NCBI GenBank assembly: GCA_046290005.1
Contig: JBKBUO010000002.1
Coordinates: forward strand, 1 to 43,338
Source: Archaeoglobaceae archaeon
GTDB taxonomy: Archaea > Halobacteriota > Archaeoglobi > Archaeoglobales > Archaeoglobaceae
Length of the DNA stretch: 43,338 nt
Reading direction: 5' to 3'
The position numbers and the translations under genes were made by a program. Shown one piece after another: positions 5,364 to 36,544 of this stretch. Positions within the stretch are counted from its first letter, which is position 1; each line of letters begins with the position of its first letter. The notes under the pieces were generated by a model. That model was not told where the DNA came from. It worked only from the letters and a program-made list of their open reading frames with translations, and searched no databases.

Positions 5364-5978
5364 TTAGGGACGTGCATATCGCTTCCATCTCAAGCGATTA
5401 TTAAAAGTTGCGCAAACTGAAAAATTGAGAGCTCTTATCGCCTTCATAAGGTCTCCTACTTTGAAGCTAAAAATAAAGGTAAAGAAAATATTAAAGATCG
5501 TTAAAAAAAGCAAGAAGAGAAAAGCTGAATCAGCGAAGAAAAGTGTGATAGCTGGCAAGAACATGGAAGACAAAGCACCTGAAGAGTAGAAGATAGCAAC
5601 CTTCTTCTTCGAAATTCTTTTCAAGCTCTCGGTCTTTATCTTCAACCCAAGGACGGGAACGAATTTAAATGGCTCGAAGATCGGGATTTTTAATTTTAAG
5701 ATAGCGGATTTTCCGATGTAATAGTAAAGGAACTCTATTCCGAAAAGCCTTCCGACGATGTAATGCGCTAAGCAATGTGTGAAATACCAGAGGAAAATCC
5801 AAGAAATTAAAAGCAAAAAGAATTTTCCGATAGAATGAAAGCTCAAAGAAAGTAGCAAGAAACAGATACCGAGCAAAGTTCCTAGAACTTCTATCAAGTT
5901 TCCTAGCCATAATGGTATCTTGATCCTTTGGGACGTCATGTCGTTTCTCACAAGTCTTTTTAAGACTCTCAATTGCAC
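5364..5978 (-). CDS. Integral membrane protein of unknown function
   Basis: 204 aa with several hydrophobic helices and an HCLAH (HxxxH) motif. Its stop lies 4 nt upstream of the out-of-frame PEPC ATG. I do not recognise a family. Confidence 0.5.
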   Translation of the reverse strand: MQLRVLKRLVRNDMTSQRIKIPLWLGNLIEVLGTLLGICFLLLSLSFHSIGKFFLLLISWIFLWYFTHCLAHYIVGRLFGIEFLYYYIGKSAILKLKIPIFEPFKFVPVLGLKIKTESLKRISKKKVAIFYSSGALSSMFLPAITLFFADSAFLFLLFLTIFNIFFTFIFSFKVGDLMKAIRALNFSVCATFNNRLRWKRYARP

Positions 5979-6003
5979 TTTTTAGAAATCATCATCCTTT
6001 TGA

Positions 6004-7326
6004 TTAGATAACACCCCTACTCTTGAGTTCTCTTAGTTTCTTTGCATCGAAACATAGAATTTTTGTGTATACGTAAGTGTTATCCGCTCCCGGCGGCTTA
6101 CAAACCCATTTTATTCTACCTGGTGTCTCGCTCATCCAACTAAAAGAAGACGTTTGGAGCAGAATCTTTCCGTAATAAGGATCTTCAATCCACCTCAAAA
6201 TTCCCCTCTCATACCAATTTTCAAGCTTAGAGCTTTCTTTTGGCGAGTAAACTATCCCCGTGACAACAGTTCCGGGAGTAGTTTTATCCATGCTGTATTC
6301 AGTGGCTTTTTTGACTATTTCTTCAGCAGTGTAATTCTTAGACCAGTGTTCTATTTCCTCTCTTAATTTAATTTGGTTTTCCAATTTCGTTCGATGCTGT
6401 GGTGTGGGGTATTTTTCAAACAAATCGGGTCTGTTCATCAAATTCGTCAACCCTCTCCAGTTTTCATCACTATACCCAGCTATGAATACACTTTTACCGT
6501 CTTTCGCTTTAACAACAGTGTATGCAAACACCGCGGGATCGTATGGACCAAATCTTGGAACAAGTCTTCCTGATTCGTGGTAATATTGCAAGTAGTAGTT
6601 ACAGTGTCTCAGCAAACATTCAGCTGGTGAAACGTCGATGTATTGTCCTTTACCTGATTGCATTCGATAAAAAAGAGCTAAAAGGATAGCATAAGCCCCC
6701 CAGGCTCCACCTGTATACCATGCCATCCAATTCCCTATCTTTAGGGGTATCTTGCATTCCTCAAGAATCGCTGGATCGAACTCTGCTTCACCAGTTACTG
6801 ACATTATACCTGAAATTGCTTGATCTATGAGATCGTAGTCGTAGACGTCTCTAATCGATTTTCCAAACTTCCCTGTTGAGGAAAATGACACATAAATCAG
6901 CTTTTGGTTTACATTGCTGAGGTTTTTATACCTCAAATCCTCTGGAGTTTCACTCGGTTTAAACGACTCTATAAATACATCTGACTTCGCAACGAGCATT
7001 TTGAGTATCTCTAATCCTTCATCACTCCTGTAATTTAGCGTGATATGATATTTATTTCTTCCTTCCACAATGTATGCTAAGCCTGTATCTTTTATCAGAA
7101 CCCCTTCCGGAGTCATTTTTCTTGCTATATCTCCTCCAGGTGGTTCAACTCTTATAACCTCGGCTCCTAATTCAGCTAAAATTGAAGAACAAAATATTGA
7201 AGCAAAATTTCCTGTAGAAACGTCTAGAACCCTAATTCCTTCCAGAGCCTCTGGTTTCTCGTAAATTTTCGACGGATCAGTTAGTTCTTTTGCCCAATCA
7301 AAGTAATCTTTTGACATACGACTCAC
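6004..7326 (-). CDS. Family III (CaiB/BaiF) CoA-transferase paralogue lacking the catalytic Asp
   Basis: GIRVLDVSTGNFASIFCSSILAELGAEVIRVEPPGGD at the N-terminus and GKGQYIDVS. By eye it aligns to the neighbouring paralogue with Trp (NWMAWYTGG) at the Asp position. Confidence 0.8.
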   Translation of the reverse strand: MSRMSKDYFDWAKELTDPSKIYEKPEALEGIRVLDVSTGNFASIFCSSILAELGAEVIRVEPPGGDIARKMTPEGVLIKDTGLAYIVEGRNKYHITLNYRSDEGLEILKMLVAKSDVFIESFKPSETPEDLRYKNLSNVNQKLIYVSFSSTGKFGKSIRDVYDYDLIDQAISGIMSVTGEAEFDPAILEECKIPLKIGNWMAWYTGGAWGAYAILLALFYRMQSGKGQYIDVSPAECLLRHCNYYLQYYHESGRLVPRFGPYDPAVFAYTVVKAKDGKSVFIAGYSDENWRGLTNLMNRPDLFEKYPTPQHRTKLENQIKLREEIEHWSKNYTAEEIVKKATEYSMDKTTPGTVVTGIVYSPKESSKLENWYERGILRWIEDPYYGKILLQTSSFSWMSETPGRIKWVCKPPGADNTYVYTKILCFDAKKLRELKSRGVI

Positions 7327-7329
7327 CTC

Positions 7330-8613
7330 CTAAAAGAACAGGCCACTTTTACCATCCCAATCGTCCGGGGGATTTGTGCCTTTTCTACCCCATTTTCCTA
7401 TTACACCCTCTTTTTCAAGTTCTCTGAGCTCTTCCATACTCATGCCAAGGATTTTTATGAAGACGAATTCGTTGTCGAATCCTAAGGGTCTTGCAACCCA
7501 TTTTATTCTACCTGGCGTTTCTGACATCTTAACGGTCTGCACTTCTGCCAACTCACCCCATATATGGTCTTCAAAGATCCATATCGTTCTTCTACTTCTC
7601 AAATGCTCGTTTTCATATAAATCTTTGAAGTTAAGTACTTTATTAGTTGCAAAGCCGTATTTTTCAGCGACTTCTTCTATTTCCTTTGTTGTTTTGGTTA
7701 TGCAGAAATCTCTCAGCTTTTTATCGACCTCCTCCATGATATGATGTCTTTTAAGTGGATCTATGTATTCCTTGTATTCCTTTTCTTCCATATCCAGAGC
7801 TCTACATAGGCCCTCGAACTCCTTTTCTCTGTAAGCCACTATTGCGATAAATCCGTCTGAACATCTGTAAAGTCCAGATGGTAATATGGCAATGTCGCGA
7901 TTTCCAGTTCGTTCTCTATTTTTCCCAGTAAGTCCTACATATATCCACGTCCAATCTGACCATCTAATTGCGGTCTCGTTTTGCGAGATATCTATGTACT
8001 GCCCTTTTCCAGTTTTTTTTCTATAAATAAGCGCTACCATCACAGCTATAGCTCCGGTTATCGATGCAGCGAAGTCTAAAAGCCAAGCACCAAATTTGAT
8101 GGGTTCTCTCTCAGGAAATCCTGTGACATACATCATACCACTTTCCGCTTGCGCAGTAGCATCGTAAGAGACTCTTAGGGCGTTTCTACCCCATTGTCCG
8201 AAGCCTGAAAGTGAAAGGTATATAATATCAGGTTTAATTTCCCTTATTTGCCTATACCCTATTCCCCATGAGTCCGTTGTGCCGGGTCTGAAATTTTCTA
8301 TAACTACATCGCATCTCTTGGCAAGCTTGTATATTAGTTCCTTTCCCTTTGGGTTTCTCAGATCGATCGCAACATGTAGCTTGTTGTGATTCTGCTCCTC
8401 GAAGCCAGGTGAAAGCGTTTTATAATAGAAGAACCACGGTGTCACATATCTCATCACGTCTCCCACGCCTGGTAATTCGACTTTTATAACTTCTGCACCG
8501 AATTCAGCCAGAAAATCGGAAGCAGCGGGTCCAAGGACAACGTTTGTCATGTCTAAGATGCGAATACCTTCGAGAACTTCTGGTTTTAAACCTATTTCAT
8601 CTACCGGGACCAT
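7330..8613 (-). CDS. Family III (CaiB/BaiF) CoA-transferase
   Basis: GIRILDMTNVVLGPAASDFLAEFGAEVIKVELPG, the candidate catalytic Asp in AWLLDFAASITGAIAVMVAL, and GKGQYIDIS. Confidence 0.85.
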   Translation of the reverse strand: MVPVDEIGLKPEVLEGIRILDMTNVVLGPAASDFLAEFGAEVIKVELPGVGDVMRYVTPWFFYYKTLSPGFEEQNHNKLHVAIDLRNPKGKELIYKLAKRCDVVIENFRPGTTDSWGIGYRQIREIKPDIIYLSLSGFGQWGRNALRVSYDATAQAESGMMYVTGFPEREPIKFGAWLLDFAASITGAIAVMVALIYRKKTGKGQYIDISQNETAIRWSDWTWIYVGLTGKNRERTGNRDIAILPSGLYRCSDGFIAIVAYREKEFEGLCRALDMEEKEYKEYIDPLKRHHIMEEVDKKLRDFCITKTTKEIEEVAEKYGFATNKVLNFKDLYENEHLRSRRTIWIFEDHIWGELAEVQTVKMSETPGRIKWVARPLGFDNEFVFIKILGMSMEELRELEKEGVIGKWGRKGTNPPDDWDGKSGLFF

Positions 8614-8639: not shown

Positions 8640-10112
8640 TTATACTTCCATCGCAGCTTTAATCTCTGGCTCAATATCCTCTTCAGAAGCGGTCTTTGTG
8701 AAGAAGGAAACTACTATCATTACCAATATTGAGAGTAAAAGAGCAATGCTGTAGCTTGGTATTCCGTAAGGCATTTTCCACCCTATTCCTCTCTCCAATA
8801 TCAAGAACGAGATATTCAATATGAGACCCGTCATAAGAGCAGCAATTGCGGCCTCTTTCGTAGCTCTTTTCCAGTTCAAACCTAAACCTATGATTGGGAC
8901 GAGTGCACAGGCAAAATAACCCCAGCCTAATGTTCCAAGTATCGCTACAAGGTAGCCCCCATAGTAACCAAAGATCAAAGCTACTATAGATAGCAAGATT
9001 GTTACTACTCTACCCCATCTAATTTGTGCCTCTCTTGTAAGCTCTCTACCAATAGCTTTTGTAAAATCTCTAACAATTGCTGCGACACCAATTGCGAGGA
9101 ACGCACTCGAAGTCGACATTATCGCAGCCAATAGGCCTGCATAGACAAATCCAGATAACGCCGATGGAAGCTTGGTTAAAAACGCCGGAGCCGCTTCATC
9201 AGCAATTTTCAAAGGTGCGAGTTGTCCAGTTACAACAAACCAAAGCGCAGTATATCCAACAAAGATCCAGAGCAAGCTTGAAAGCATGTAACTGCCACCA
9301 CTTATAACTCCTCCCCATTTTAAATCTTGGAACCTTCGAAGTGCTATGAATTTCGTAGCGAGATGTGGTTGCCCCAAGTTACCAATGACGAAAACGAAAT
9401 ACCATATGAAGGCTAACATCCAAGTTCCAGTTCCTAAGGGATCGACTTTCACCGGATCCTTTAAAGCTATTGGTTCAAAAAGCCCACCAGTTCCTCCTGT
9501 GATAACCAGTGCAGCTATCAAAACTCCAATAGCTGCTATTAACATTACAATTCCCTGCATAACATCCGTCAATATGCTTGCGACCATCCCTGCTATGGCA
9601 GTATAAGTCATTGTGATTCCAAACACAATTAGTATTGCAGCTTCGAGAGGTATCCCCAACAACCCTGCAACCACGTATCCACCAGCCAATACTTGTGTGC
9701 CCAAGTATGCAAAAACTCCGAGTACAAGGCTTATAGCTAGTAGTCCTCTTACAGCTTCACTCTTAAATCTCAGAGCAGCTATGTCAGGCAAAGTGGCGAC
9801 AGGTTTTACTTCTGTGATTAGTCTGATTCTTTTCCCTATTATCCACCACGAGAAACCAAAAGCAGCGGCTTGAGCGAGGGTAATCCAGAGGGAGGTTGCA
9901 CCCATAGCATAGACTAAACCAGGACCACCTACAAAGCCGAATCCGCTCATTATTGCAGCAAAACTTGCAACTCCCACTATAAGTGGTCCAAAAAGTTTAT
10001 GGGCTCCGTAGTATTCTTCTGCCACCTTAACGTATTTTTTAGCATATACTCCCACTGCAAATGTCACGATGAAATAGCAGATTACTATCGCAACAATCAC
10101 GGGATCGCTCAT
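8640..10112 (-). CDS. Sodium:solute symporter family (SSF) transporter
   Basis: 490 aa with about 13 hydrophobic segments and Gly-rich SSF-like helices. Its start overlaps the stop of the upstream small membrane ORF (ATGA). Confidence 0.75.
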   Translation of the reverse strand: MSDPVIVAIVICYFIVTFAVGVYAKKYVKVAEEYYGAHKLFGPLIVGVASFAAIMSGFGFVGGPGLVYAMGATSLWITLAQAAAFGFSWWIIGKRIRLITEVKPVATLPDIAALRFKSEAVRGLLAISLVLGVFAYLGTQVLAGGYVVAGLLGIPLEAAILIVFGITMTYTAIAGMVASILTDVMQGIVMLIAAIGVLIAALVITGGTGGLFEPIALKDPVKVDPLGTGTWMLAFIWYFVFVIGNLGQPHLATKFIALRRFQDLKWGGVISGGSYMLSSLLWIFVGYTALWFVVTGQLAPLKIADEAAPAFLTKLPSALSGFVYAGLLAAIMSTSSAFLAIGVAAIVRDFTKAIGRELTREAQIRWGRVVTILLSIVALIFGYYGGYLVAILGTLGWGYFACALVPIIGLGLNWKRATKEAAIAALMTGLILNISFLILERGIGWKMPYGIPSYSIALLLSILVMIVVSFFTKTASEEDIEPEIKAAMEV

Positions 10113-10537
10113 TCTTTTACACCCCCTTTTGCCTCCTCAATTTTCTTTTTAAACTCTTCAAAAGCGGGCTCTATCAGCTTTTTGAACAAAATTGCGTAGC
10201 TAACTGTAGTAGCAATGTAAATCAATAGCCACATCACCGGGAAGAGTACAAAGAAACCTGGATGCATTCCAGCAATCCAAAAGTCGGGTATCTTCTTGTA
10301 AAAGAGAGCCCAATAGTGGAATATCAGTGAGAGGCAAATCACCCATATTAAAAGAGACAAGACCCCGATTATAATTGCCTCTTTCCTCCTTGAGTTCGAT
10401 GCACCAAGTATTAGCCAAAGCGAAAGGTTTACAGCCATCAAATAGCCAAATATCTGCCAATAGTTCAGCAACGCTACTATCACTAGCAAGAAAGAAGTTA
10501 TTCCGATTCCGAATACGAGTCCTTCTCTAAATTTCAT
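10109..10537 (-). CDS. Small 4-TM membrane protein, a putative symporter accessory subunit
   Basis: 142 aa and hydrophobic. It is translationally coupled (ATGA) to the SSF gene. I do not recognise a family. Confidence 0.5.
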   Translation of the reverse strand: MKFREGLVFGIGITSFLLVIVALLNYWQIFGYLMAVNLSLWLILGASNSRRKEAIIIGVLSLLIWVICLSLIFHYWALFYKKIPDFWIAGMHPGFFVLFPVMWLLIYIATTVSYAILFKKLIEPAFEEFKKKIEEAKGGVKE

Positions 10538-10600: not shown

Positions 10601-11305
10601 CTAATAAAAATTCATAGAAGTAGAAAGCTTCAAAACCTGGGGAAAGATCTTTTTCACCCCATTTCTCAATTTTCTCGAAACGTAACCCTTAGACAAGTTC
10701 AAATATGAAGATAGATCATCAAGTTTTACCTTCTTTGGGTCACAGAAATAGCCCAATTCAATTGCAAACTCCAAAATTTGTTTCTCGATCAGATCTAAGT
10801 TTTTGATAGAATTTATCAGCTCTACGATTAAAGAGATGTTGGATAAAACCAGGGAGAGATCTTCAGAACTTACGTAGTCTTTTCTCTTTATATAAAACTC
10901 GTGATTCTTATCTAACTCAGAAAGAGTATTTTCCAGAGATTCGTTGTCGTCGAATCCAATATGCCATATCTCTCTTCCCCTTCTGATAAAAAATGGTCCA
11001 ACTACGTATCCATTGTTCCTCTTTATTATATCCATTGCCTCTGTGAAGCGTATGGTCGTTTTGATCATTGCCCTACCTTTTTCCTTTTCTAAAACTTTTA
11101 AATCAATAAAATTTGGCTCCTCTTTAATTTCTCTCAGAGCTAAGTCGAGTTCTTCGGAATTTAACGCGTGAATGTATCCTCTATTTAGTAAGAGTTTGTC
11201 GGTAAAATCCCAAAAGGTCATATAGTATGTTACCTCCATCTTCTCCGAGCTTAATATGAACGGGCAATCTGGTTGGATCATGTCCAACACTACGATGTAG
11301 ACCAT
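10601..11305 (-). CDS. HTH_10 (bacterio-opsin-activator-type) transcriptional regulator
   Basis: The C-terminal EKQILEFAIELGYFCDPKKVKLDDLSSYLNLSKGYVSRKLRNGVKKI matches the HTH_10 helix-turn-helix. It is divergent from the ketone carboxylase operon. Confidence 0.7.
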   Translation of the reverse strand: MVYIVVLDMIQPDCPFILSSEKMEVTYYMTFWDFTDKLLLNRGYIHALNSEELDLALREIKEEPNFIDLKVLEKEKGRAMIKTTIRFTEAMDIIKRNNGYVVGPFFIRRGREIWHIGFDDNESLENTLSELDKNHEFYIKRKDYVSSEDLSLVLSNISLIVELINSIKNLDLIEKQILEFAIELGYFCDPKKVKLDDLSSYLNLSKGYVSRKLRNGVKKIFPQVLKLSTSMNFY

Positions 11306-16630: not shown

Positions 16631-16646
16631 ATTTAATTAATTTTTT
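16631..16646 (+). terminator. Oligo-T tract after the carboxylase operon
   Basis: atttaattaaTTTTTT lies directly after the stop at 16628-16630. Archaeal termination typically uses oligo-T runs. Confidence 0.3.
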
Positions 16647-17326: not shown

Positions 17327-17540
17327 ACCTATTGCTTTGGCAATTTCGAAGTAGGTCTTTGGCACGTTGTAGTTAAGATCTGGAAAAATTTATGAAGTAG
17401 AACTTTATTTGTCGTAGTTCTGCATAACCTTCAGCTGGTGGCGAACTTGTGATCCACAACTTTTATAAAAACCTAACCCTTTTCGTTGCTTTGAGTTCGA
17501 GGGGATGCATACTGATATTTTGATTAAATCATACTCAAAA

Positions 17541-20343: not shown

Positions 20344-20345
20344 AG

Positions 20346-22407: not shown

Positions 22408-22408
22408 G

Positions 22409-26080: not shown

Positions 26081-26087
26081 GTATTCG

Positions 26088-26147
26088 TGCTCAAGCTCCG
26101 AGGTTAAATTTTAATATTTGCTCATTCTATTTATTTTCGGTGGTGAA
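26088..26147 (+). promoter_or_regulatory. Promoter cassette P3: TATA plus a TGCTCAT box
   Basis: ttaaattttaatatttgctcat at 26104-26125. A second box tgctcaa at 26088-26094 lies 31 nt upstream. GGTGGTGA precedes ATG 26148. Confidence 0.5.
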
Positions 26148-26594
26148 ATGGTAACGAGGTATGAGGGCATACCATTTGTTGCTCGGTTCCAATGGAGCGT
26201 TGGGGAGCTTTTTGACGAATTTCTCAGTGGTCTAAGGAATGCAAAGCTCATGGCTTCGAAATGCGGTTGTGGTTACACCGTATTGCCCCCGAGGATAAGA
26301 TGCCCAAAGTGCCATGCAAAGATTGGTAAGGAGAACTTGATTGAGCTCAGCGGAAAAGGAATAGTAGAGACTTACACAAAAGTTTTCTTCAAGTTCGATG
26401 GTAGCGGAAACGAAATCTGGCTTGATAAACCAGAGATATTAGCCATGGTCAGATTTGAAGGTGCGAATTCTGTTCTCGTCTTTCCTTACTTGGATGCCGA
26501 AATCTCTGAAGGACTTGAAGTGGAAATCGTATGGAGAGAGGAGAGGAGCGGTAGCGTTTCAGACATCTTGGGCGTTAGGAAGGTGAGAAGATGA
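26148..26594 (+). CDS. DUF35 protein (zinc ribbon plus OB fold)
   Basis: A CGCG...CPKC ribbon. I prefer ATG 26148 over the TTG at 26118, which lies inside the promoter box. Confidence 0.8.
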   Translation: MVTRYEGIPFVARFQWSVGELFDEFLSGLRNAKLMASKCGCGYTVLPPRIRCPKCHAKIGKENLIELSGKGIVETYTKVFFKFDGSGNEIWLDKPEILAMVRFEGANSVLVFPYLDAEISEGLEVEIVWREERSGSVSDILGVRKVRR

Positions 26595-28968: not shown

Positions 28969-29474
28969 AAGTGATCAAGGAAAAATTTAAGGAGACGTCA
29001 AGAGTCTTTGGAGATTGGAACGTCGGAGCTTACAAATGGAAAGCTCCGAAAGGATATTTAGACGAATATGTCGCAATGCTGGGGAGGAAAAAGATACTTG
29101 GATCTCTTTGCAAGGGATGTGGAAGAGTTTACGTTCCGCCAAGAGAGTTCTGCGGTCGTTGCTTTGAAAAAATTGAAGAAAAGGTGATCGTAAGCAACTA
29201 TGGAAGGTTGCTTGCTTTTCTCGTCTCTCCACCTCTGCAAAAAGGAAAGATAATGATAGCTGGGATGGACGTTGTTGCAATGGGAATCTTAAAAGAAGGT
29301 GAAACGATAATCCTTGGTATAGTGCAGTTCGAGGGCTCATCTTCGAAAATGGTTATACCAGTTCTAAATACAAAGCCTGAGAACCTCCGTGTGGGAATGA
29401 GGGTAAAGGCGGTTTTTGCTGAAGAAACGAAGGGTCAGCTCTCGGATCTACTTGGGGTTGAGCCTGCAGATTAA
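28965..29474 (+). CDS. DUF35 protein (zinc ribbon plus OB fold)
   Basis: A CKGCGRVYVPPREFCGRC ribbon. The GTG start overlaps the upstream TGA (GTGA at 28965-28968). Confidence 0.8.
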   Translation: MKVIKEKFKETSRVFGDWNVGAYKWKAPKGYLDEYVAMLGRKKILGSLCKGCGRVYVPPREFCGRCFEKIEEKVIVSNYGRLLAFLVSPPLQKGKIMIAGMDVVAMGILKEGETIILGIVQFEGSSSKMVIPVLNTKPENLRVGMRVKAVFAEETKGQLSDLLGVEPAD

Positions 29475-29512
29475 ATTTATTTTTATATTAAAATTTTTAA
29501 ATTAAAAGCACA

Positions 29513-29565
29513 TTTGCTTATAATTGCTGATAAAATACATTATAATGCTCAAACAATATACTTTC
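29513..29565 (+). promoter_or_regulatory. Promoter cassette P4 with three TGCT-type boxes
   Basis: tgcttat at 29515-29521, tgctgat at 29525-29531 and tgctcaa at 29546-29552, spaced 10 and 21 nt apart, within AT-rich TATA-like sequence upstream of ATG 29566. Confidence 0.4.
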
Positions 29566-31179
29566 ATGAAGCTGAGGTATGAGTTGCTGATTAAAAAGGC
29601 ACTCTATTTTCCACTCTACAGCTACCCAGAGAAGGAGATAGTGTGGAGAGACGGAAAATACAGCTACAGAGTGTTCTACGATAGGTTACAGCGGTTTGCA
29701 AGTGGTTTGGAAGGCTTGGGGATCAAGGATGCAAAGATAGCCTTCTTTGACTGGAATACACATCATTACCTCGAGGGCATGTTCGCAATTCCCATGATGG
29801 GCTCAATTTTGCACTTTGTAAACATCCGCCTCTCTCCGCAGGAGATCGTATACACTGCTAACTACGTAAAAGACGATTATGTAATCTTTGGCAAAGACTT
29901 TCTCCCGCTGTTGGAGAGGATTGCTCCGCATATTCCAAGTGTGAAGGGCTGGATAGCGACTGAAGAAGTTGAAACTTTGCTTAAGCCACTCTACTACTAC
30001 GAGGACATAGTCAAAAGCGGATCCAAATACGAATTCCCAGAATTCGATGAGAACAAAACTGCATGTGTGTATTTCACATCTGGCACCACTGGATTACCAA
30101 AAGCGGTTCACTTCTCGCATCGTGGGATCATCTTGCAGTGTATAATCAACGGTCTCTCACTCTCGATAAATCACTCTCCTACAAGACTTTCAAGCGATGA
30201 CGTTGTCATGCACATCCCCCCGTTCTTCCACGGTATGGGTTGGACTTTCCCATATCTGGCGACTATGTTTGGAATGAAACAAGTTCTACCCGGGCGATAT
30301 GAGCCGAAGACGATGCTCGAGCTGATAAAGAGGGAGGAGGTAACTTTCGCTGCTGGTGTGCCCGTGTTTTTGAGGATGCTGATAGACTCGCCAGAAAGCA
30401 GGGACTACGCTGAGGTTCTGAGGGGTCTAAAATTTGTTTGCGATGGAGAACATCCGCCAAGGGTTCTGTTTGAGAGAGCGAAGCAGTTTGGAATTGAGAT
30501 GATCGAGGCTTTCGGAATGTCTGAAGGAGTTGGCTTCACATTCGCTGTTCTAAAAGACCACATGCTCGAATGGAGCTGGGAAAAACAACTCGAGTTCTTG
30601 AACAAAGCAGGCTTGCCAGCGCCACTCGTTGAAGTGAGAATATTGGACTTCGAGGGCAAAGAAGTGCCAAGAGACGGGAAAACGATGGGAGAAATACTGA
30701 TCCGAAGCCCCGGTCTAACTGAAGGATATTGGATGAACCCCGAGAAAACAAAGGAGTCATGGACTGAAGATGGTTGGTTCAAAACGGGTGATCTCGGAGT
30801 CTGGGATGAGGAAGGATACATAATGATCCTTGATAGAGCTAAAGACGTGATAAAGAGCGGTGGCGAATGGATAAGCTCTGTAAGACTTGAGGGGCTAATA
30901 CTTACGCACCCTGCAGTGAACGAGTGCGCAGTTATTGCGGCGAGAAGCGAGAGGTGGGGTGAACGTCCAGTTGCGGTAGTAACGCTAAAACCAGGTAAAA
31001 CAGCAAGTGAAGAGGAGATAAAAAGCTTTCTTGTTGAGAAATACGTTGAAACAGGAACGATTCCGAAGTGGTGGATTCCTGATAGGATATTCGTCGTGAA
31101 CGAGATCCCGAAGACGAGCGTAGGGAAGATAAACAAGAGGAGCATAAGAGAGGTATACAAAGACTTGGTTTTACAATGA
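29566..31179 (+). CDS. Medium/long-chain AMP-forming acyl-CoA ligase
   Basis: VYFTSGTTGLPKAV, WFKTGDLG, and PKTSVGKINKR at the C-terminus. The track start at 29524 (TTG) lies in the promoter. Confidence 0.85.
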   Translation: MKLRYELLIKKALYFPLYSYPEKEIVWRDGKYSYRVFYDRLQRFASGLEGLGIKDAKIAFFDWNTHHYLEGMFAIPMMGSILHFVNIRLSPQEIVYTANYVKDDYVIFGKDFLPLLERIAPHIPSVKGWIATEEVETLLKPLYYYEDIVKSGSKYEFPEFDENKTACVYFTSGTTGLPKAVHFSHRGIILQCIINGLSLSINHSPTRLSSDDVVMHIPPFFHGMGWTFPYLATMFGMKQVLPGRYEPKTMLELIKREEVTFAAGVPVFLRMLIDSPESRDYAEVLRGLKFVCDGEHPPRVLFERAKQFGIEMIEAFGMSEGVGFTFAVLKDHMLEWSWEKQLEFLNKAGLPAPLVEVRILDFEGKEVPRDGKTMGEILIRSPGLTEGYWMNPEKTKESWTEDGWFKTGDLGVWDEEGYIMILDRAKDVIKSGGEWISSVRLEGLILTHPAVNECAVIAARSERWGERPVAVVTLKPGKTASEEEIKSFLVEKYVETGTIPKWWIPDRIFVVNEIPKTSVGKINKRSIREVYKDLVLQ

Positions 31180-31241: not shown

Positions 31242-33164
31242 TCACTTTCCCGTCCAAGAGGGACGTCTTCTTTGCACAAAAGCCCTCATCCCCTCTGCAA
31301 AGTCCTCTGTTGGAATTAGCTCGGTAATCTCGTGTAATCCCTTTTCGACGACGAATTTGAAAACGTCTCTATAAGCCCTTGCAGTCTCCTTTATTGCCTT
31401 CGCAGAAAGTGGGGCGAGCCTTGTTATCTTGTTGACGAACTCGACTCCAGTTATCTCAAGCTGGTCTTTTGAAACGACTAAATCGACGATTCCAAGTGTC
31501 TTGGCTTCTTCTGCATCCATCTGATCCCCCGTGAGACAGTATCTCATCATCCTTCTTCCAATCACCGCAACACCGAGAGATGAAGCTATCGGCGGAATCG
31601 CCCCTATGAGACCTTCTGGCACTGAAAAAGTTGCCTCTTCACTTGCTATCACGATGTCGAAGGCTAAGTTGAGCTCCAATCCACCACCAAAGGCTATTCC
31701 GTTTACAAGGGAAATTATCGGTTTCTTGTAGTTTGCAATCGTATTCAACAATGGCATTGCGACGTCTACAAAGAAATTTTTTCCATCCAAAAAGCTCTTC
31801 CAAGAGCCCATGACCGCGATGTCGTCTCCAGCGCAGAAAGCTCTCCCTTTCCCAGTTATAACCACTGCCCTCACATCTGGGTCTTTCTCAGCCTGTATGA
31901 AAGCTTCGTTCAATCCTCTCCACATCTCTTCGTTGAGAGCATTCAGCTTTTCTGGACGGTTCATCGTGATCATCGCATAATTGTCTCTTTTCTCATAGAT
32001 CACAGGGCCAAATTCTCTCTTCTCGTATTTCCACTTGTAGAATCCCTCACCGGTTTTCTTTCCAAGCTTTCCTTCAGAGACCATACTCAAGAGCAAAGGA
32101 TCGACGTTTTTACCTTCGAGGATCTTCACCACGTTGTCTATGCCAAAATCATCTGCCATCTCGAGCAATCCCTTTGGATAAGCCATCCCAAAGACCATTG
32201 CCTTGTCTATGCCCTCTTTGCTTGCAACACCATTTCTGAGAAGCCAAGCTGCCTCGTTTATTCCGGAAGCCAACAGCTTTATAGGGTTTAGTTTATAGGC
32301 AGACCTCGGGGATATCTTTACCCTGCTGTAGAATCCTTCGTATTCGTAAAAGCCTTTCCCTGTTTTCATTCCCAATCTTTTCTCTTCAACCATCTTTTTT
32401 AGGATCTCCGGGACTTCTAAATCCATCCCCCTTTTCTTGAGCTCGTTTATGACGTTGTATAGGACATCAACCCCACTGAAATCTGCGACTTCAAAGATCC
32501 CCATTGGCATTCCGATCCTATACCTTACGACGGCATCGATCTCTTCCGCTTTGTGCTCTTCCAATAACCTTAGAGCTTCGCCGAAAACCCTGGCGTTTAT
32601 CCTGTTCACAACAAATCCCGGTACGTCTTTTTCAACAACGATGTAGTCCATCCCTATCGATTTTGCGAATTCAACTGTCTTTTTCAGTGTTTCTTCGCTT
32701 GTTTTTTCACCTTTTACAATTTCCACGAATTTTATTATAACTGGTGGATTGAAAAAGTGAAGACCAACGACTTTATCCGCCCTATTTGTGGCAGACGCTA
32801 TATCGGAGATCGGAATCGTTGACGTGTTCGTCGAGAGTATGACTTCTGGTCTGCAATTCTCATCAATCGTTTTGAAAACCTCCTTTTTAACCTCGGTTCT
32901 CTCAACAACGGCTTCGATTACAAAGTCTGCATTTTTTGACGCATCGACTAAATCTGTGGTTATTCTTATTCTTTGCAGGATATCTATTGCACTCCTCACT
33001 TCTCTTTTTTCTTCAAGCTTTTTAAGGCTCCAACCGATCTTCATCTTAGCAGATTCAAGCAGTTCTTCTGACACATCGACTAAATCCACGTTGTAGCCAG
33101 CGGTTGCGCAGACCGTTGCGATTCCGTGCCCCATCGTTCCCGCACCAACGACTAATACCCTCAT
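31242..33164 (-). CDS. Fused 3-hydroxyacyl-CoA dehydrogenase (N-terminal) / enoyl-CoA hydratase (C-terminal)
   Basis: N-terminal VLVVGAGTMGHGIA NAD-binding fold and a C-terminal crotonase region with GKGRAFCAGDDIA. The domain order is the reverse of bacterial FadB, as known for archaeal fusions. Confidence 0.9.
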   Translation of the reverse strand: MRVLVVGAGTMGHGIATVCATAGYNVDLVDVSEELLESAKMKIGWSLKKLEEKREVRSAIDILQRIRITTDLVDASKNADFVIEAVVERTEVKKEVFKTIDENCRPEVILSTNTSTIPISDIASATNRADKVVGLHFFNPPVIIKFVEIVKGEKTSEETLKKTVEFAKSIGMDYIVVEKDVPGFVVNRINARVFGEALRLLEEHKAEEIDAVVRYRIGMPMGIFEVADFSGVDVLYNVINELKKRGMDLEVPEILKKMVEEKRLGMKTGKGFYEYEGFYSRVKISPRSAYKLNPIKLLASGINEAAWLLRNGVASKEGIDKAMVFGMAYPKGLLEMADDFGIDNVVKILEGKNVDPLLLSMVSEGKLGKKTGEGFYKWKYEKREFGPVIYEKRDNYAMITMNRPEKLNALNEEMWRGLNEAFIQAEKDPDVRAVVITGKGRAFCAGDDIAVMGSWKSFLDGKNFFVDVAMPLLNTIANYKKPIISLVNGIAFGGGLELNLAFDIVIASEEATFSVPEGLIGAIPPIASSLGVAVIGRRMMRYCLTGDQMDAEEAKTLGIVDLVVSKDQLEITGVEFVNKITRLAPLSAKAIKETARAYRDVFKFVVEKGLHEITELIPTEDFAEGMRAFVQRRRPSWTGK

Positions 33165-33170: not shown

Positions 33171-34868
33171 TCACCCAACTTGCTCTCTTTCTCCCCTCTT
33201 TATCTTTTCTATTTCTCTTTCTCTTAGAACCCTTCTCAAGAGTTTGCCCGAAGGTGTTCTCGGCAATGAGTCAACGAATTCGACTTCCCTTATCCTCTTA
33301 TACCCCGAAATCCTCTCTTTGACCCACTCTAAGATTTCTTTTTCGCTCACTTTCTTTGAGTATTCCGGTTTTAGAACGATGAACGCCTTCGGTATCTCTC
33401 CCGCTTCGGGATCGGGTTTGCCTATAACTGCAACGTCTTGGACAGCTTCGTGCCTCATGATGAGGGCTTCAAGCTCGAAGGGTGCTATGGTGTAGCCTTT
33501 GTACTTTATTACCTCCTTGATTCTGTCCTGAAATATCAGAAATCCCTCCTCGTCTATGTAGCCTATATCGCCTGTTCTAAAGAACTTTTTACCCGTCTTT
33601 TGGTCAATCCACCAAGCTTTGGCATCTTCTTCAGGTCTCTTCCAGTAACCCTTGAAAATGTTCGGTCCAGAAATCACGATTTCTCCGCTCTTGTTGATGT
33701 CTTCGATCTCCCTCCCAGTTTCGATGTCCACTATTTTTAACTCTACGTCTGGTAAAGGAATCCCTTGTCTCTCTGTCCTGTCAAGCCTTATTGGTGGATT
33801 GCTTGTGCACATTGGGCTTGCTTCAGTCATCCCCCAAACTTGGTTGTGGAGCAAATTGGGATTGTTGCACTTCTCTGCGGCAACTTTCTTCATTCTATCT
33901 ATCAGCGCTCTAGCCACAGGCCAAGCTCCAGTGGCGAAGCACTTGAGAAATCTCCAATCGTATCTCCTCGTTTCTTCGCCTTCAAGATAACTTATCAGCA
34001 ACGCATATGCAGGTGGCACAGCCCAAGAAATCGTTGCCTGATAATTCTCTATGTTCTCTGCAAGCAATTGTGGATTGAACATGCCCATTATTATGTATGT
34101 CCCACCCACACCAAGCAAGATGTTGAAGAAGCCAAACTCCGCCATGTGGAACATGGGCATACTCCCAACGTGGGTATCCATGTGGCTAATCCCAAAAGCG
34201 GTGGCTAATTGAATGGCGTTTGAAACCAAGTTGTAATGTGTGAGCATCACACCCTTTGGTGGTCCAGTGGTTCCACCAGTGTAGCAGATGGTCGCTATGT
34301 CATTCAAGGGATCTATGTCGATCGCCACGGGTTTTGCTTCTCCTTCCTCAACAAGCTTACCAAGTCTATAAGCACTCTCAACATCTCCGCCCACAACGAT
34401 GACTTTTTCAACTTGCACTTTGTCTTTAACGTTCTGGAAAACCTGGTAGAAATTGCTGTGAATCACGAGAGTTGAAACTTCTGCGTCGTTCAGAACGAAC
34501 TCGAGCTCATACTCCCTATACATCCAGTTGATTGGAACTTGGATCGCTCCAAGCTTCCAATTGGCATAGGTGACCACAACGTAATCGGGTGAGTTTGGAA
34601 GCATCACTCCGACTTTGCTACCTTCTGAAATCCCAAGCAGGTGAAAAGAATTTGCGAGTCTGTTCGTCAATTCACCCAGCATTTTGAAGGTAATGATGTC
34701 GGGCAAGTCATAGGGAAACCTTGGTTCAGCGTAGATGATGGCGATTTTATCACCATACTTCTTGACCGCGTTCTCCAAATATTCCCCGAGGGAGATCTTG
34801 GGGTAGTAAAGCGAGGGGAAGCCGATTCTATAGGAGAGCCTACTAATGTCTACCATATCGCATCCCAC
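33171..34868 (-). CDS. AMP-forming acyl-CoA synthetase
   Basis: ICYTGGTTGPPKGV, FFRTGDIG, PRTPSGKLLRR. The start is GTG 34868, or alternatively ATG 34856. Confidence 0.85.
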   Translation of the reverse strand: MGCDMVDISRLSYRIGFPSLYYPKISLGEYLENAVKKYGDKIAIIYAEPRFPYDLPDIITFKMLGELTNRLANSFHLLGISEGSKVGVMLPNSPDYVVVTYANWKLGAIQVPINWMYREYELEFVLNDAEVSTLVIHSNFYQVFQNVKDKVQVEKVIVVGGDVESAYRLGKLVEEGEAKPVAIDIDPLNDIATICYTGGTTGPPKGVMLTHYNLVSNAIQLATAFGISHMDTHVGSMPMFHMAEFGFFNILLGVGGTYIIMGMFNPQLLAENIENYQATISWAVPPAYALLISYLEGEETRRYDWRFLKCFATGAWPVARALIDRMKKVAAEKCNNPNLLHNQVWGMTEASPMCTSNPPIRLDRTERQGIPLPDVELKIVDIETGREIEDINKSGEIVISGPNIFKGYWKRPEEDAKAWWIDQKTGKKFFRTGDIGYIDEEGFLIFQDRIKEVIKYKGYTIAPFELEALIMRHEAVQDVAVIGKPDPEAGEIPKAFIVLKPEYSKKVSEKEILEWVKERISGYKRIREVEFVDSLPRTPSGKLLRRVLREREIEKIKRGEREQVG

Positions 34869-34891
34869 AGTTTTTTCATCTTCCTAATCTC

Positions 34892-36544
34892 CTACTTGGA
34901 GTAGTAATCCCTATAGATTTCCCTCAGAGCTCTCTTGCTAAACTTTCCAACGCTTGTCTTTGGTATTTCTTCGACAAAGAGGATCTCGTCTGGTATCTGC
35001 CACTTCGCGAATCTCTTCATAAGATGTTCCTTGATCTCCTCTTTTGTTATCTTCTCTCTGTATTCAGGCTTTGGCACCACAATCGCAAGCGGTCTCTCCT
35101 GCCATTTGGGATGGGGGACTCCAATGACGCAAGCTTCGAAAACCTTAGGATGCGCCATTATGTAGTTCTCGAGGTCAACGCTACTTATCCATTCTCCACC
35201 GCTTTTTATCAAGTCTTTGAATCGATCCACTATTTTTATATATCCATTTGGATCTATTGTCGCTGCATCTCCGCTTCTCCACCACTTTCCAGTTTTATCT
35301 TCTATGAACGACTCAAACGTTCTCGGATCCCTGTAGTATTCCTCAATTACCCACGGACCACGGATGCAAAGCTCTCCAACTGTTTTTCCATCCCAAGGGA
35401 GCTCTTTTCCATTTTCATCCACGAGCTTTACTTCAACGCCAAAAACCGGAACTCCTTGTTTTCTCCTAATTTCCCACTTTTCTTCCTCTCCAAGTTCCTC
35501 AAGCTCTGGTTTTAGGAAATTGTAGCAAACGAGTGGACTCGTCTCTGTTGCGCCGTAAGCGTGGATTATTTCGATTCCAAACTCCTTCAATCCCTTTATC
35601 ATCGCCAACGGCGGTTCAGTAGCCCCACTAAAGGCTCTCATGTTGAACTTGGGTTTTGGATCCATCCTCTGAAGGTAGTTTAGAAGTGGTATGAAGATCG
35701 CTGGAGCTCCACCGGTAACGGTAACGTTTTCTTTCAACATCAGATCAACTATTGGCTTTAAATCGTCGAGCATGAATCTACCCGGAAAGACGAGCTTCGC
35801 ACCCGCAATCGTCGCTGCGAAAAATCCGCCCCAGCCCTGAGCGTGGAACATGGGAACGATTTGTAAATAAACGTCCCTACTACTTACGTTTTGGGCAGTT
35901 AAGATCGCTAGGGTGTGTAAGTAAATCGCTCTATGGGAGTAGTAAACGCCCTTTGGTTTACCGGTGGTTCCTGAAGTGTAACAAGCGAGGCATGCGGATC
36001 TTTCATCGATCACTGGGAACTCGTATCTCTCGTCTTGCTCTTTGAGCAAATCTTCATAGTTGAACGTCTCGAAGAAAGTCTCAGGTGGCTTTCCATCGCT
36101 CATCACAACAAACTTCGCCTTTACAGCATCTAAAAGCGGTATGGCGAGCGGAAGTAGGGATTCATCGATGAAGATTATCTTCGCTCCGCTGTGCTTCGCT
36201 ACGTAAGCCATTTCCTCAGGATGAAGCCGTAGATTCATCTCAAGCAAAACCGCACCGATTCCCGGAATTGCAAAGTAGAGCTCGTAGAATCTATGCGTGT
36301 TCCAGCTCAAAACTCCTATTCTATCCCCAACTCTCAAACCCAAACTTTCAAGAGCGTTTGCAAGCTTTGAAACCCTTTTAAAAGCTTCAGCGTAGTTGTA
36401 TCTGAACATCGTCCCATCTAAACGCCTTGAGGCTATCTCTCTGCTCGAAAAGAACTTTGCAGCGTGCCTCAGCATTTCTATTAAGTTGAGCTGGTAGTCG
36501 TCCATCATAGTCGAGGGAAAACCTCTTACTATCATCTCTCTCAC
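34892..36544 (-). CDS. Medium-chain-type AMP-forming acyl-CoA synthetase
   Basis: STMMDDYQLNL at the N-terminus, ACYTSGTTGKPKGV, WWRSGDAA, PKTSVGKFSKR. Confidence 0.85.
   Translation of the reverse strand: MREMIVRGFPSTMMDDYQLNLIEMLRHAAKFFSSREIASRRLDGTMFRYNYAEAFKRVSKLANALESLGLRVGDRIGVLSWNTHRFYELYFAIPGIGAVLLEMNLRLHPEEMAYVAKHSGAKIIFIDESLLPLAIPLLDAVKAKFVVMSDGKPPETFFETFNYEDLLKEQDERYEFPVIDERSACLACYTSGTTGKPKGVYYSHRAIYLHTLAILTAQNVSSRDVYLQIVPMFHAQGWGGFFAATIAGAKLVFPGRFMLDDLKPIVDLMLKENVTVTGGAPAIFIPLLNYLQRMDPKPKFNMRAFSGATEPPLAMIKGLKEFGIEIIHAYGATETSPLVCYNFLKPELEELGEEEKWEIRRKQGVPVFGVEVKLVDENGKELPWDGKTVGELCIRGPWVIEEYYRDPRTFESFIEDKTGKWWRSGDAATIDPNGYIKIVDRFKDLIKSGGEWISSVDLENYIMAHPKVFEACVIGVPHPKWQERPLAIVVPKPEYREKITKEEIKEHLMKRFAKWQIPDEILFVEEIPKTSVGKFSKRALREIYRDYYSK

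Follow-up and report, generated by a model that had tools for sequence, protein, structure and literature searches.

Positions 5364–36544 of a 43,338-nucleotide stretch of an Archaeoglobaceae archaeon (contig JBKBUO010000002.1; the whole stretch is called the window below) hold a gene island that combines acyl-CoA-metabolizing enzymes with an acetone-carboxylase-type enzyme and two sets of thiolase-fold proteins. With moderate confidence, we propose that the core of this island specifies an 'acetone shunt', independent of biotin, for the degradation of short 3-methyl-branched acids, the prototype of which would be isovalerate derived from leucine. The gene content of the window was established from a six-frame list of open reading frames (ORFs) and from Pfam and NCBIfam searches; the reactions, substrate and direction of the route are those that we infer. 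Sequence comparisons supported the route overall, much as it had been put forward in an earlier note made from the DNA letters (the original prediction).

In the proposed route, a ligase or a CoA-transferase would turn the 3-methyl-branched acid into its acyl-CoA. An acyl-CoA dehydrogenase (ACAD) with a catalytic base of the isovaleryl-CoA dehydrogenase (IVD) type would then yield the 3-methyl-2-enoyl-CoA, and hydration by a MaoC-type hydratase would give a tertiary 3-hydroxy-3-methylacyl-CoA, which no dehydrogenase could oxidize. A complex of two thiolase-fold subunits (thlA and thlB) and a DUF35 protein would split this compound by retro-aldol cleavage into acetyl-CoA and a methyl ketone, in the prototype acetone; thlB would be the catalytic subunit with an invariant Tyr as the base, and thlA and DUF35 would serve as structural partners. 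A Mn enzyme of the acetone carboxylase type (alpha-beta-gamma) would next convert acetone, bicarbonate and ATP to acetoacetate, releasing AMP and 2 Pi. Finally, the 3-oxoacid would be reactivated, by an acetoacetate-CoA ligase (AacS) in sister genomes and by ligase 1 or the CoA-transferase pair in the window, and the resulting 3-oxoacyl-CoA would be split by an ordinary thiolase encoded elsewhere.

The ORFs and family matches bore out the enzyme inventory of the original prediction, namely five acyl-CoA ligases, an ACAD, MaoC and crotonase hydratases and a 3-hydroxyacyl-CoA dehydrogenase (HACD), together with a ketone carboxylase (11494–16630), a CoA-transferase pair (6004–8613, minus strand) and a symporter (8640–10112, minus strand). 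The core genes form three plus-strand units. The first comprises the alpha, beta and gamma genes of the carboxylase. The second (17570–25481) runs ligase1-thlA1-thlB1-DUF35-MaoC-ACAD-ligase2 with stop and start codons overlapping throughout. The third (25523–31179) starts with the gene of a probable AF_0136-like regulator and continues DUF35-thlA2-thlB2-DUF35-ligase3, with stop/start overlaps in 26118–29474. The thiolase-fold and DUF35 genes of the second and third units are referred to as module 1 and module 2.

The carboxylase unit encodes a Hydantoinase_B-type alpha subunit (781 amino acids; 11494–13839), a Hydantoinase_A-type beta subunit (745 amino acids; 13833–16070, its start overlapping the end of the alpha gene; PF05378, PF01968 and PF19278) and an Acetone_carb_G gamma subunit (187 amino acids; 16067–16630; PF08882, E = 1.9e-36). 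The alpha subunit matched that of Xanthobacter autotrophicus acetone carboxylase (5m45_A) over residues 2–740 (E = 2.4e-148), and gamma matched 5m45_C over its full length (E = 1.1e-35); acetophenone carboxylase, hydantoinases and caprolactamase gave much weaker matches, and identity to known acetone enzymes was 40–45%. The Mn ligands of the acetone carboxylase alpha subunit are Glu89, His150, Asp153 and His175 (PMC5543143). All four were kept in the window protein as E75, H136, D139 and H161 and were invariant in 14 homologues. The window carboxylase thus carries the hallmarks of acetone carboxylase and is predicted to make acetoacetate from acetone in an ATP-dependent reaction, with indirect support from the acetoacetate-CoA ligase that scores above its equivalog cut-off and adjoins the carboxylase in L002, L089, L092 and other loci. 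Asgard archaea (Loki-, Thor-, Hod-, Hermod- and Freyarchaeia) very often carried alpha-beta-gamma genes of 45–50% identity as well, in their case with no thiolase-fold neighbours (loci L091, L108–L150 and others).

Each module contains a smaller thiolase-fold subunit A and a larger subunit B. Module 1 consists of thlA1 (19240–20343; PF22691), thlB1 (20319–21503; TTG start) and one DUF35 gene (21440–21964; Zn ribbon plus OB fold; PF12172 and PF01796), the product of which was 52–55% identical to its counterparts in the related loci L089 and L092. Module 2 consists of a DUF35-like gene, 2a (26118–26594; CxxC...CxxC Zn ribbon, with a weak PF12172 match on the L002 orthologue), thlA2 (26591–27730), thlB2 (27727–28968; ATG start) and a second DUF35 gene, 2b (28962–29474; PF12172, E = 1.3e-8), which follows thlB2 in all lineages. 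The expectation of two Cys-less thiolase-fold/DUF35 modules therefore held for the missing Cys and was corrected in gene number, with two thiolase-fold genes in each module and two DUF35 genes in module 2.

The A and B subunits were aligned to Pyrococcus thiolase (7yvy), Methanothermococcus thiolase (6esq) and SCP2 thiolases. The N- and C-terminal thiolase-fold domains were present (PF22691, PF00108), and the nucleophilic Cys was found in none of the four proteins, its place being taken by Gly in B1, B2 and A2 and by Ser in A1. A thiolase with this residue had been predicted to be lacking, and Pfam detected no other thiolase domain, no biotin carboxylase and no 3-hydroxy-3-methylglutaryl-CoA (HMG-CoA) lyase domain in the substantial ORFs of the 43-kb window. 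The nucleophile motif reads TGGTTG in B1 and TGGTVG in B2, compared with AACASG in 7yvy. The acid/base motif of B is YSAF instead of HDCF (6esq) or HDAF (7yvy), and the His motif GHP is replaced by TNP or TNA; in general form, the B pattern is Y-x-[PAG]-F for HDCF and TN[PA] for GHP. B1 also carries HAWGG. The A subunits show unrelated residues at the Cys, HDCF and GHP positions (DDSAFA, MDLV and TNV in A1; EDGLMA, TERF and GDA in A2), and thlA1 is probably a non-catalytic partner. Among 111 full-length B2 relatives, down to 43% identity, T81-G82-G83, Y307, F310, Q313, T355-N356, H392 and W394 were invariant, so that the TGGT[TV]G motif singled out in the original prediction is constant as T-G-G; B1 has the same motif-first Tyr as Y307 of B2. 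None of the four thiolase catalytic residues is left in the B subunits, which have gained a Tyr of the aldolase type.

The characterized thiolase-fold aldolases Ltp2 and Sal use a Tyr as catalytic base, located in YDHF and YDCY, respectively, where thiolases have the XDCX motif; in Sal the nucleophile position is occupied by Gly and thiolysis is not possible, and the second catalytic residue is Tyr344 in Ltp2 and Cys304 of YDCY in Sal (PMC12329534). The Tyr of B was equated with Y294 of Ltp2 and Y302 of Sal by transitivity through the HDCF motif of SCP2 thiolases, a shared reference that was needed because Ltp2 (6ok1) and Sal (9myr) were never among the best five alignments in comparisons of the A and B subunits. 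Equivalents of Tyr344 and Cys304 are missing from B, and therefore the mechanism of Ltp2 and Sal is not simply transferable; judged by their residues, the B subunits appear to be a third active-site variant among thiolase-fold aldolases. Together with the residue replacements, the invariant Tyr and the membership of B2 in the Ltp3 subfamily described below support the predicted retro-aldol cleavage and make thlB a candidate retro-aldolase with Tyr as the putative base.

An AlphaFold model of B2 (pLDDT 87) adopted the SCP2/archaeal thiolase fold, with a TM-score of 0.84 to 6esq. It resembled thiolases, BbsB (7pxp), PhlC, Ltp2, Sal and TbSLP about equally (TM-score 0.75–0.84), and the fold is therefore not diagnostic; the active-site residues are. 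A haloarchaeal BktB reading (polyhydroxyalkanoate type) of the thiolase-fold genes was rejected on the basis of model scores and the missing Cys. Sulfolobus tokodaii ST0096 (PDB 4yzo), a thiolase-like protein, was also one of the top matches to the A and B subunits; it lacks the nucleophilic Cys (SGSGGS), retains HD-x-x and GHP, and may be a further non-thiolase in the A/B group.

The appearance of BbsB among the structural neighbours bears on an alternative already named in the original prediction, a bbs-like route, here taken as beta-oxidation of arylalkyl- or alkyl-succinates in the anaerobic degradation of hydrocarbon side chains. The CoA-transferase pair, the ACAD, the hydratase and the thiolase-fold plus DUF35 genes do recall bbsEF, bbsG, bbsH and bbsAB. 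BbsB itself, however, is a Cys thiolase; its model gave 158 and 117 bits against a cut-off of 750, and that of BbsA 26.7 against 250. Moreover, the window has no genes for a BbsCD-type dehydrogenase or a fumarate-adding enzyme, and the acetone carboxylase and AacS would be left unexplained. With these scores and the missing Cys the bbs-like reading was discarded, and we regard it as very improbable.

Relatives with known context were consistent with a lyase role. B2 scored 518.5 bits on NF006180 (PRK08313, the Ltp3 subfamily; cut-off 514) and is a member of it, whereas B1 (331.8 bits) is not a member by this score. On the Ltp4 model NF005924 (PRK07937; cut-off 419), A2 (166 bits) and A1 (140 bits) both fell below. 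For comparison, the proteins of a Tsukamurella plasmid reached 734.3 bits (Ltp3-like, a synteny-defined Ltp3 orthologue) and 593 bits (Ltp4-like). The order on this plasmid is a double-DUF35 protein, a 359-aa and a 390-aa thiolase-fold protein, which we take to be the Rv3521-ltp4-ltp3 arrangement of Mycobacterium tuberculosis, and the neighbours encode a P450, a steroid 3-ketoacyl-CoA thiolase, a ligase and a crotonase. The large Tsukamurella subunit was 38% identical to B2 (E = 9e-73) and carries TAGSVG, YVPF, SNP and HAYGG; the small subunit had thlA2 as its best match in the window (31.5%, 5e-39), and DUF35 2a matched the double-DUF35 protein (E = 5e-11). Ltp3 and Ltp4 are described as aldol-lyases that are needed to degrade C24-branched sterol side chains (Wilbrink 2012, as cited in PMC6593523).

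Module 1 has a counterpart on a Rhodococcus plasmid, which encodes ACAD-ACAD-MaoC-MaoC-A-like-B-DUF35-CoA-transferase-SDR-ligase in an igr-type layout; its B protein was 41% identical to B1 and its DUF35 47% identical to that of module 1. In the window, the DUF35, MaoC and ACAD genes adjoin thlA1/thlB1 with overlapping stop and start codons (19240–23650), an adjacency from which a complex is predicted. The known steroid side-chain route breaks a tertiary beta-hydroxyacyl-CoA down to a ketone and an acyl-CoA. By analogy, module 1 with MaoC and ACAD would mirror the ACAD/hydratase/aldolase logic of that route, and the igr operon together with the Rhodococcus arrangement lends support to the predicted order of dehydrogenation, hydration and cleavage.

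The MaoC-type (R)-specific enoyl-CoA hydratase (21961–22407; PF01575, E = 1.2e-35; overlapping the DUF35 gene by 4 bp) retains, in GDWNQLH, the catalytic Asp and His of the established hydratase-2 motif. The ACAD (22400–23650) has a Glu directly before the helix-G Arg (LNPER), and Ala-Pro (LRLAPVTQ) replaces the Tyr-Glu of medium-chain acyl-CoA dehydrogenase (MCAD)-type enzymes (GEGT/YEGT). The base of IVD is found about 120 residues upstream of where MCAD has it, and the branch is accommodated because Gly-Ala replaces Tyr-Glu (Tyr375-Glu376 of MCAD) (PMC12369846). The helix-G base is shared with long-chain acyl-CoA dehydrogenase (LCAD) and is therefore not exclusive to IVD. In the protein comparisons, IVD (1ivh) ranked 13 (E = 3e-46) behind a generic Thermus ACAD as the best match (3.5e-53), and all NCBIfam models scored below their cut-offs. 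Because overall similarity was not specifically to IVD, the sequence supports the predicted label 'IVD-type' at the level of active-site architecture only. The ACADs beside module 2 in Dehalococcoidia (LDFER...IGGGTN) and Methanolliviera were more IVD-like than that of the window, with L[DN]FER...IG[GV]GG[TS]N.

The ACAD matches also bear on a reading in which a carboxylated compound of the HMG-CoA type is the substrate of the lyase, with 3-methylglutaryl-CoA, for example, being converted via 3-methylglutaconyl-CoA to HMG-CoA; acetoacetate would be freed directly, and the carboxylase would do no more than salvage the acetone that arises when acetoacetate is decarboxylated by heat in a thermophile. 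Non-decarboxylating glutaryl-CoA dehydrogenase was among the best NCBIfam matches of the ACADs, the family-III CoA-transferases resemble transferases of dicarboxylates (mesaconate, glutarate), albeit far below cut-off, and the module-2 neighbours share a 3-oxoacid theme. The sterol substrate of Ltp3/Ltp4 is, moreover, said to have been proposed by Wilbrink in 2012 to be carboxylated before cleavage. Yet glutaryl-CoA dehydrogenase has its base at the MCAD-type position, and the IVD/LCAD-type base of the window ACAD would seem to be at odds with such an enzyme. The substrates needed are rare compared with isovalerate, Pfam identified an enoyl-CoA carboxylase in none of the window, L089 and L092 clusters, and the repeated tight operon linkage of a costly ATP-dependent carboxylase exceeds what salvage would lead one to expect. 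We therefore consider this reading unlikely.

Gene neighbourhoods add contextual evidence for the acetone shunt. Carboxylase loci were grouped by the identity of their alpha subunit to that of the window, with about 20 at ≥68% and about 65 at ≤57%. In the first group, 15 loci carried thlA/thlB/DUF35 and ACAD genes beside AcxABC, and two more were compatible but cut by contig ends; in the second group (Asgard archaea, Firmicutes and others), only three had thiolase-fold neighbours. The set of thlA/thlB/DUF35, ACAD and AcxABC, with MaoC and a ligase in part of the loci, occurred in at least four gene orders. The first is ligase-MaoC-(regulator)-thlA-thlB-DUF35-ACAD-AacS-AcxABC (Caldisphaera metagenome-assembled genome [MAG] L092; also L103, L105 and L151) and the second thlA-thlB-DUF35-ACAD-AcxABC-AacS (L089, L101). 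In the third, AacS-A1-B1-DUF35-MaoC-ACAD-regulator-module 2 is divergent from Acx (L002, L009, L102), and the fourth is the window's own (L094 together with L007, L095 and L096). Co-localization of the gene set is thus conserved across several gene orders, in Archaeoglobaceae and in a Caldisphaera (Thermoproteota) MAG. That a single gene set has persisted in two archaeal phyla despite repeated rearrangement speaks for a functional link.

The same data weigh on the possibility that there is no common pathway and that lipid and ketone catabolic operons were merely gathered in one island. The three separate plus-strand transcription units and the 940-bp gap between two of them would fit such a gathering, as would the restriction of the CoA-transferase/symporter unit to the nearest relative and the frequent occurrence of module 2 without a carboxylase. 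Against it, the gene set has survived at least four rearrangements in two phyla, and the linkage is restricted to one carboxylase clade. We give this reading only a slight chance.

The Caldisphaera-type operon, 15 kb in length, is a compact form of the acetone shunt and encodes all six of its steps up to acetoacetyl-CoA, the reactions being predicted. Its thlB is of the B1 type (51% identity; TGGTTG, YDAF, SNP and HAWGG), and its first gene is an orthologue of ligase 3 of the window (29524–31179; NF004837, 513.5 bits vs. a cut-off of 476; 58–59% identical to the ligase of L092, L105 and L151). By Pfam, no biotin carboxylase or HMG-CoA-type lyase domain was present in the L089 and L092 clusters. 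In most relatives with the carboxylase-linked set, a genuine acetoacetate-CoA ligase is part of the cluster: AacS of the sister clusters scored 866 bits on NF002937 (cut-off 639) and 690 on TIGR01217 (cut-off 521), and the L089 and L092 orthologues were 63–64% identical to it. In L002, L009 and L102, AacS stands where ligase 1 (17570–19267; AMP-binding domain, PRK06187/PRK06155-like, below cut-off) stands in the window. This cluster composition points to acetone and acetoacetate as the likely intermediates, in agreement with the original prediction.

A long-chain version of the originally predicted route has also to be considered, in which isoprenoid acids (phytanate-like or derived from archaeal lipids) or long beta-branched chains would yield long methyl ketones, the five ligases and two modules covering different chain lengths. 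The two paralogous modules and the ordinary HACD/crotonase in the island are in keeping with this version, bulky sterol side chains are the substrates of the Ltp3/Ltp4 homologues, and an LCAD-type base would also be compatible. It is disfavoured by AacS of the sister clusters, which points to a C4 3-oxoacid, by the 40–45% identity of the carboxylase to enzymes known for acetone, and by the compact Caldisphaera-type operon with its one ligase and one module. We hold this version to be rather improbable.

The context of module 2 proved to be much wider. A B2 profile scan of 185,579 species genomes returned 351 relatives, and neighbourhoods were taken from the best 80 of them, all from MAGs or uncultured organisms: Archaeoglobaceae, Hadarchaeota, Thermoproteota, Jord- and Freyarchaeia, Methanolliviera, Dehalococcoidia, Deltaproteobacteria and Actinomycetota. 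The DUF35-A-B-DUF35 unit was kept nearly everywhere, and DUF35 2a was present in nearly all 80 loci. A carboxylase lay within 10 kb in 5 of the 80 loci, in Archaeoglobaceae and one Hadarchaeales MAG only. The idea that B2-family genes are generally linked to a carboxylase was accordingly rejected; the co-occurrence of carboxylase and thiolase-fold genes that the original prediction had proposed for comparison is a feature of the one carboxylase clade. Since module 2 mostly occurs without a carboxylase, its function is not tied to the shunt, and it is probably a paralogous lyase with another specificity (chain length or branch).

Neighbours of module 2 elsewhere included ACADs of the IVD type (an ACAD adjoined in 22 loci), ligases in 18, BKACE in 15 and class-I CoA-transferase pairs, and these neighbour enzymes all handle 3-oxoacids. 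An initial identification of gene clusters c20 and c42 near module 2 as electron-transfer flavoprotein subunits was dismissed, as Pfam assigned them to class-I CoA-transferases. The best model of BKACE was 3,5-dioxohexanoate:acetyl-CoA acetone transferase (358 bits vs. a cut-off of 430), an enzyme of anaerobic phloroglucinol degradation. BKACE stood beside module 2, often with a PF04199 'cyclase', in Dehalococcoidia and other lineages (L014, L019, L026, L033, L039, L042, L044, L046, L054, L059, L060), a neighbourhood that hints at an Ltp3/4-like lyase linked to a triacetate/3-oxoacid route. Biotin carboxylases were not found beside module 2 in Dehalococcoidia. In Actinomycetota (L063–L086) and in Dehalococcoidia (L019, L020 and L026), module 2 was located among genes for DNA polymerase I, ribosomal protein S1, UvrB and YebC, an odd neighbourhood for a peripheral catabolic enzyme. 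An AF_0136-family protein was encoded directly upstream of module 2 in eight Archaeoglobaceae loci (L002, L007–L010, L012, L016, L034); its window counterpart (25523–26080; PF27315/PF27313 on the identical product in L001) has an N-terminus resembling a ribbon-helix-helix DNA-binding domain and is probably a dedicated regulator of module 2.

The 3-oxoacid neighbourhood could be taken to favour assimilation of acetone, 2-propanol or methyl ketones, in which an external ketone would be carboxylated and activated, the Cys-less complexes would act on acetoacetyl-CoA by a non-covalent mechanism, and ACAD and MaoC would belong to a side reaction. Acx with AacS is the standard bacterial acetone module, as in the Kyrpidia locus L090, a classical AacS-sigma54 regulator-Acx cluster. 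In addition, the BKACE, class-I CoA-transferase, AacS and Acx genes near module 2 make or use acetoacetate or other 3-oxoacids, and cleavage of acetoacetyl-CoA is the next step to be expected. However, B has other residues at all four thiolase catalytic positions and A has none of the catalytic ones, and no thiolase is known to work without the Cys. The conserved ACAD and MaoC would be left without a role, and the compact operons L089 and L092 have neither an alcohol dehydrogenase nor a 3-hydroxyacyl-CoA dehydrogenase. Assimilation of an external ketone thus seems unlikely to account for the island.

Several observations weigh against the acetone shunt. Concerning the lyase, its activity in the B family is predicted from sequence, and the aldol-lyase role of Ltp3/Ltp4 comes from genetics only; in addition, B has no second aldolase residue, with Asn at the position of the GHP His and Ala, Pro or Gly at that of the Cys. 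Concerning the dehydrogenation and hydration steps, the window ACAD is overall no closer to IVD than to other ACADs, the Caldisphaera-type operon ACAD has an MCAD/short-chain (SCAD)-type Glu (LDEGR...EIGEGTN) and is not IVD-like, and the L089 and L101 clusters have no MaoC gene. Concerning the carboxylation, only one carboxylase clade shows the link, more than 70 bacterial and archaeal loci have module 2 but no carboxylase within 10 kb, and in the window the carboxylase operon is separated by 940 ORF-free bp from the ligase1-thl operon. Finally, by NCBIfam the window has no acetoacetate-CoA ligase of its own, a Cys-thiolase that is not in the island would still be needed, and the ATP cost exceeds that of the methylcrotonyl-CoA carboxylase route, as acetone carboxylase forms AMP and 2 Pi.

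The gap at 16631–17569, between the carboxylase gamma gene and ligase 1, was checked for a decayed gene, a repeat or an RNA, and showed no ORF, protein similarity, Rfam match or inverted repeats. An ORF-free stretch of about 880 bp (16650–17531; 39.5% GC) was missing from the closest relatives L094, L095 and L096, in which the gap is about 180 bp; it probably separates the carboxylase and ligase-1 transcription units in the window organism.

In a wider form, the proposal is that thermophilic archaea (Archaeoglobaceae and Caldisphaera-like Thermoproteota) degrade isovalerate or leucine, and possibly other 3-methyl-branched acids, via obligatory free acetone. A heteromeric Cys-less lyase of thiolase-fold and DUF35 proteins, acting on 3-hydroxy-3-methylacyl-CoA, and a dedicated acetone-carboxylase clade that fixes CO2 again would take the place of methylcrotonyl-CoA carboxylase and HMG-CoA lyase; more generally, the widespread DUF35-A-B-DUF35 unit of the Ltp3/Ltp4 type would serve anaerobes as a lyase for tertiary beta-hydroxyacyl-CoAs of many kinds. 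We judge this form to be evenly poised between right and wrong. If true, it would be a third solution to the beta-methyl block, besides alpha-oxidation and biotin-dependent gamma-carboxylation, and would give thiolase-fold aldolases their first physiological role outside steroid catabolism and their first in archaea. It would also explain a distinct acetone-carboxylase clade in hot-spring archaea, which are unlikely to meet much external acetone, and offer a testable function for the large uncharacterized B2 family (351 relatives, the best 80 of them uncultured), whose actinobacterial members Ltp3 and Ltp4 are part of the cholesterol regulon in pathogenic mycobacteria. In the opposite direction, from acetone and acetyl-CoA to 3-hydroxyisovaleryl-CoA, the lyase would be of interest for C5 and isobutene bioproduction. 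The enzyme families are already known. The searchable literature yielded nothing relevant on acetone carboxylase with DUF35/thiolase, isovalerate, leucine degradation, 3-hydroxyisovaleryl-CoA or Archaeoglobus, and the bypass of methylcrotonyl-CoA carboxylase and HMG-CoA lyase by carboxylation after cleavage was not found there, nor were the presence in archaea, the heteromeric A/B architecture and the third active-site variant.

The remaining island genes begin with the first minus-strand block, in which a 204-aa ORF at the island edge (5364–5978) gave no Pfam or NCBIfam match, and its membership is doubtful. It is followed by family-III CoA-transferase subunits a (6004–7326; PF02515, E = 4.7e-81) and b (7330–8613; PF02515, E = 5.4e-109), the best NCBIfam models of which were succinyl-CoA:mesaconate and succinate-glutarate CoA-transferases, far below cut-offs. 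Next come a sodium:solute symporter (SSF) gene (8640–10112; PF00474, E = 2.7e-48; no specific NCBIfam assignment), a candidate substrate importer, and a 142-aa ORF (10109–10537) that overlaps it by 4 bp, has no family match and possibly encodes a small subunit of the symporter, with a 143-aa counterpart in L094. An HTH_10/HVO_2525_N archaeal transcription regulator (10601–11305; PF04967, PF24279), divergent from the carboxylase operon, holds the same position in L094. A CoA-transferase pair beside Acx was seen only in this closest relative; the link of the CoA-transferase/symporter unit to the carboxylase is local only, and its involvement in the route is conjecture. In L094 (7179–8651), the SSF symporter beside the pair is broken into parts of 301 and 146 amino acids, whereas the window has it whole.

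Ligase 2 (23643–25481; 612 amino acids, FadD11-like; PF00501, PF23562; NF038343, 326 bits, below cut-off) is the last gene of the unit 17570–25481. The second minus-strand block encodes a fused HACD/crotonase of ordinary beta-oxidation (31242–33164; PF02737, PF00725, PF00378), with an 88% identical copy in L007, and acyl-CoA ligases 4 (33171–34868; PF00501, PF13193) and 5 (34892–36544; NF004837, 554.8 bits vs. a cut-off of 476). In an 86%-identical relative (L002/L003, 13565–16060), one called gene of 831 amino acids joins IS605 OrfB/TnpB (Cas12f-like) and AMP-binding ligase domains, and a Y1 transposase adjoins; a transposon apparently landed in, or fused with, an island ligase gene. The window, which derives from an uncultured archaeon, has a GC content of about 43% and archaeal markers (an archaeal-type phosphoenolpyruvate [PEP] carboxylase, the HTH_10 regulator and AF_0136 domains), and its thlB2 was 98% identical to a gene of the Archaeoglobaceae MAG DRTY-6_201912_bins_46. 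Outside the island are a tRNA gene (2989–3063), the PEP carboxylase gene (4005–5333, minus strand), which adjoins it, and a CbiM/CbiQ/CbiO cobalt (ECF) transporter (39898–42171), none with an evident link to the island. A sodium/bile-acid symporter (SBF) gene (37708–38443, minus strand) appears to be split into overlapping ORFs of 180 and 127 amino acids, possibly a frameshift or pseudogene.

Compared with known systems, the proposed shunt shares with the canonical leucine/isovalerate and Liu/Atu routes the problem of a 3-methyl branch that blocks beta-oxidation, the fixation of one CO2, and the products acetoacetate and acetyl-CoA. The Liu/Atu route uses isovaleryl-CoA dehydrogenase, a biotin-dependent methylcrotonyl- or geranyl-CoA carboxylase, a hydratase and an HMG-CoA-type lyase. 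In contrast, the shunt would invert the order of carboxylation and cleavage, pass through free acetone at a higher ATP cost, and need neither a biotin enzyme nor a TIM-barrel HMG-CoA lyase. With bacterial AcxABC plus AacS (Xanthobacter, Aromatoleum and Kyrpidia type), the island shares the alpha-beta-gamma composition, full-length similarity and the four Mn ligands, and most relatives of the window have AacS next to the carboxylase. In bacteria, such clusters are made up of Acx and a sigma-54 regulator, with AacS in some of them, and support growth on acetone from outside, whereas the archaeal clade sits inside an ACAD/hydratase/thiolase-fold operon.

The igr system of Mycobacterium and Thermomonospora (ChsE1-ChsE2, ChsH1-ChsH2 and Ltp2) likewise combines an ACAD, a MaoC hydratase and a thiolase-fold/DUF35 enzyme acting on a tertiary beta-hydroxyacyl-CoA, with Gly or some other non-Cys residue at the nucleophile position, a Tyr first in the HDCF-equivalent motif and a Zn-ribbon/OB-fold partner. 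The island differs in having two different thiolase-fold subunits (A and B), a free DUF35 protein where that of igr is fused to the hydratase, the motif Y-S/Q/D-A/P-F instead of YDHF, an archaeal host, and a carboxylase for the ketone product encoded alongside. Module 2 resembles Ltp3/Ltp4 with the double-DUF35 protein (Rv3521 type) in its two DUF35 domains, its small and large thiolase-fold subunits, its signature (no Cys, Y-x-P-F, [ST]-N-P, H-A-[WY]-G-G) and its association with beta-branched acyl chains. However, identity is 38%, A2 lies far below the Ltp4 cut-off, and the DUF35 domains of module 2 are separate genes flanking the A/B pair; carboxylation of the sterol is thought to precede cleavage, whereas the ketone carboxylase of the island would act after it. 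Complexes of the 6esq type, the closest structural neighbours (TM-score 0.84), also join two different thiolase-fold proteins through DUF35, but their catalytic Cys forms an acyl-enzyme and is missing in all four island proteins.

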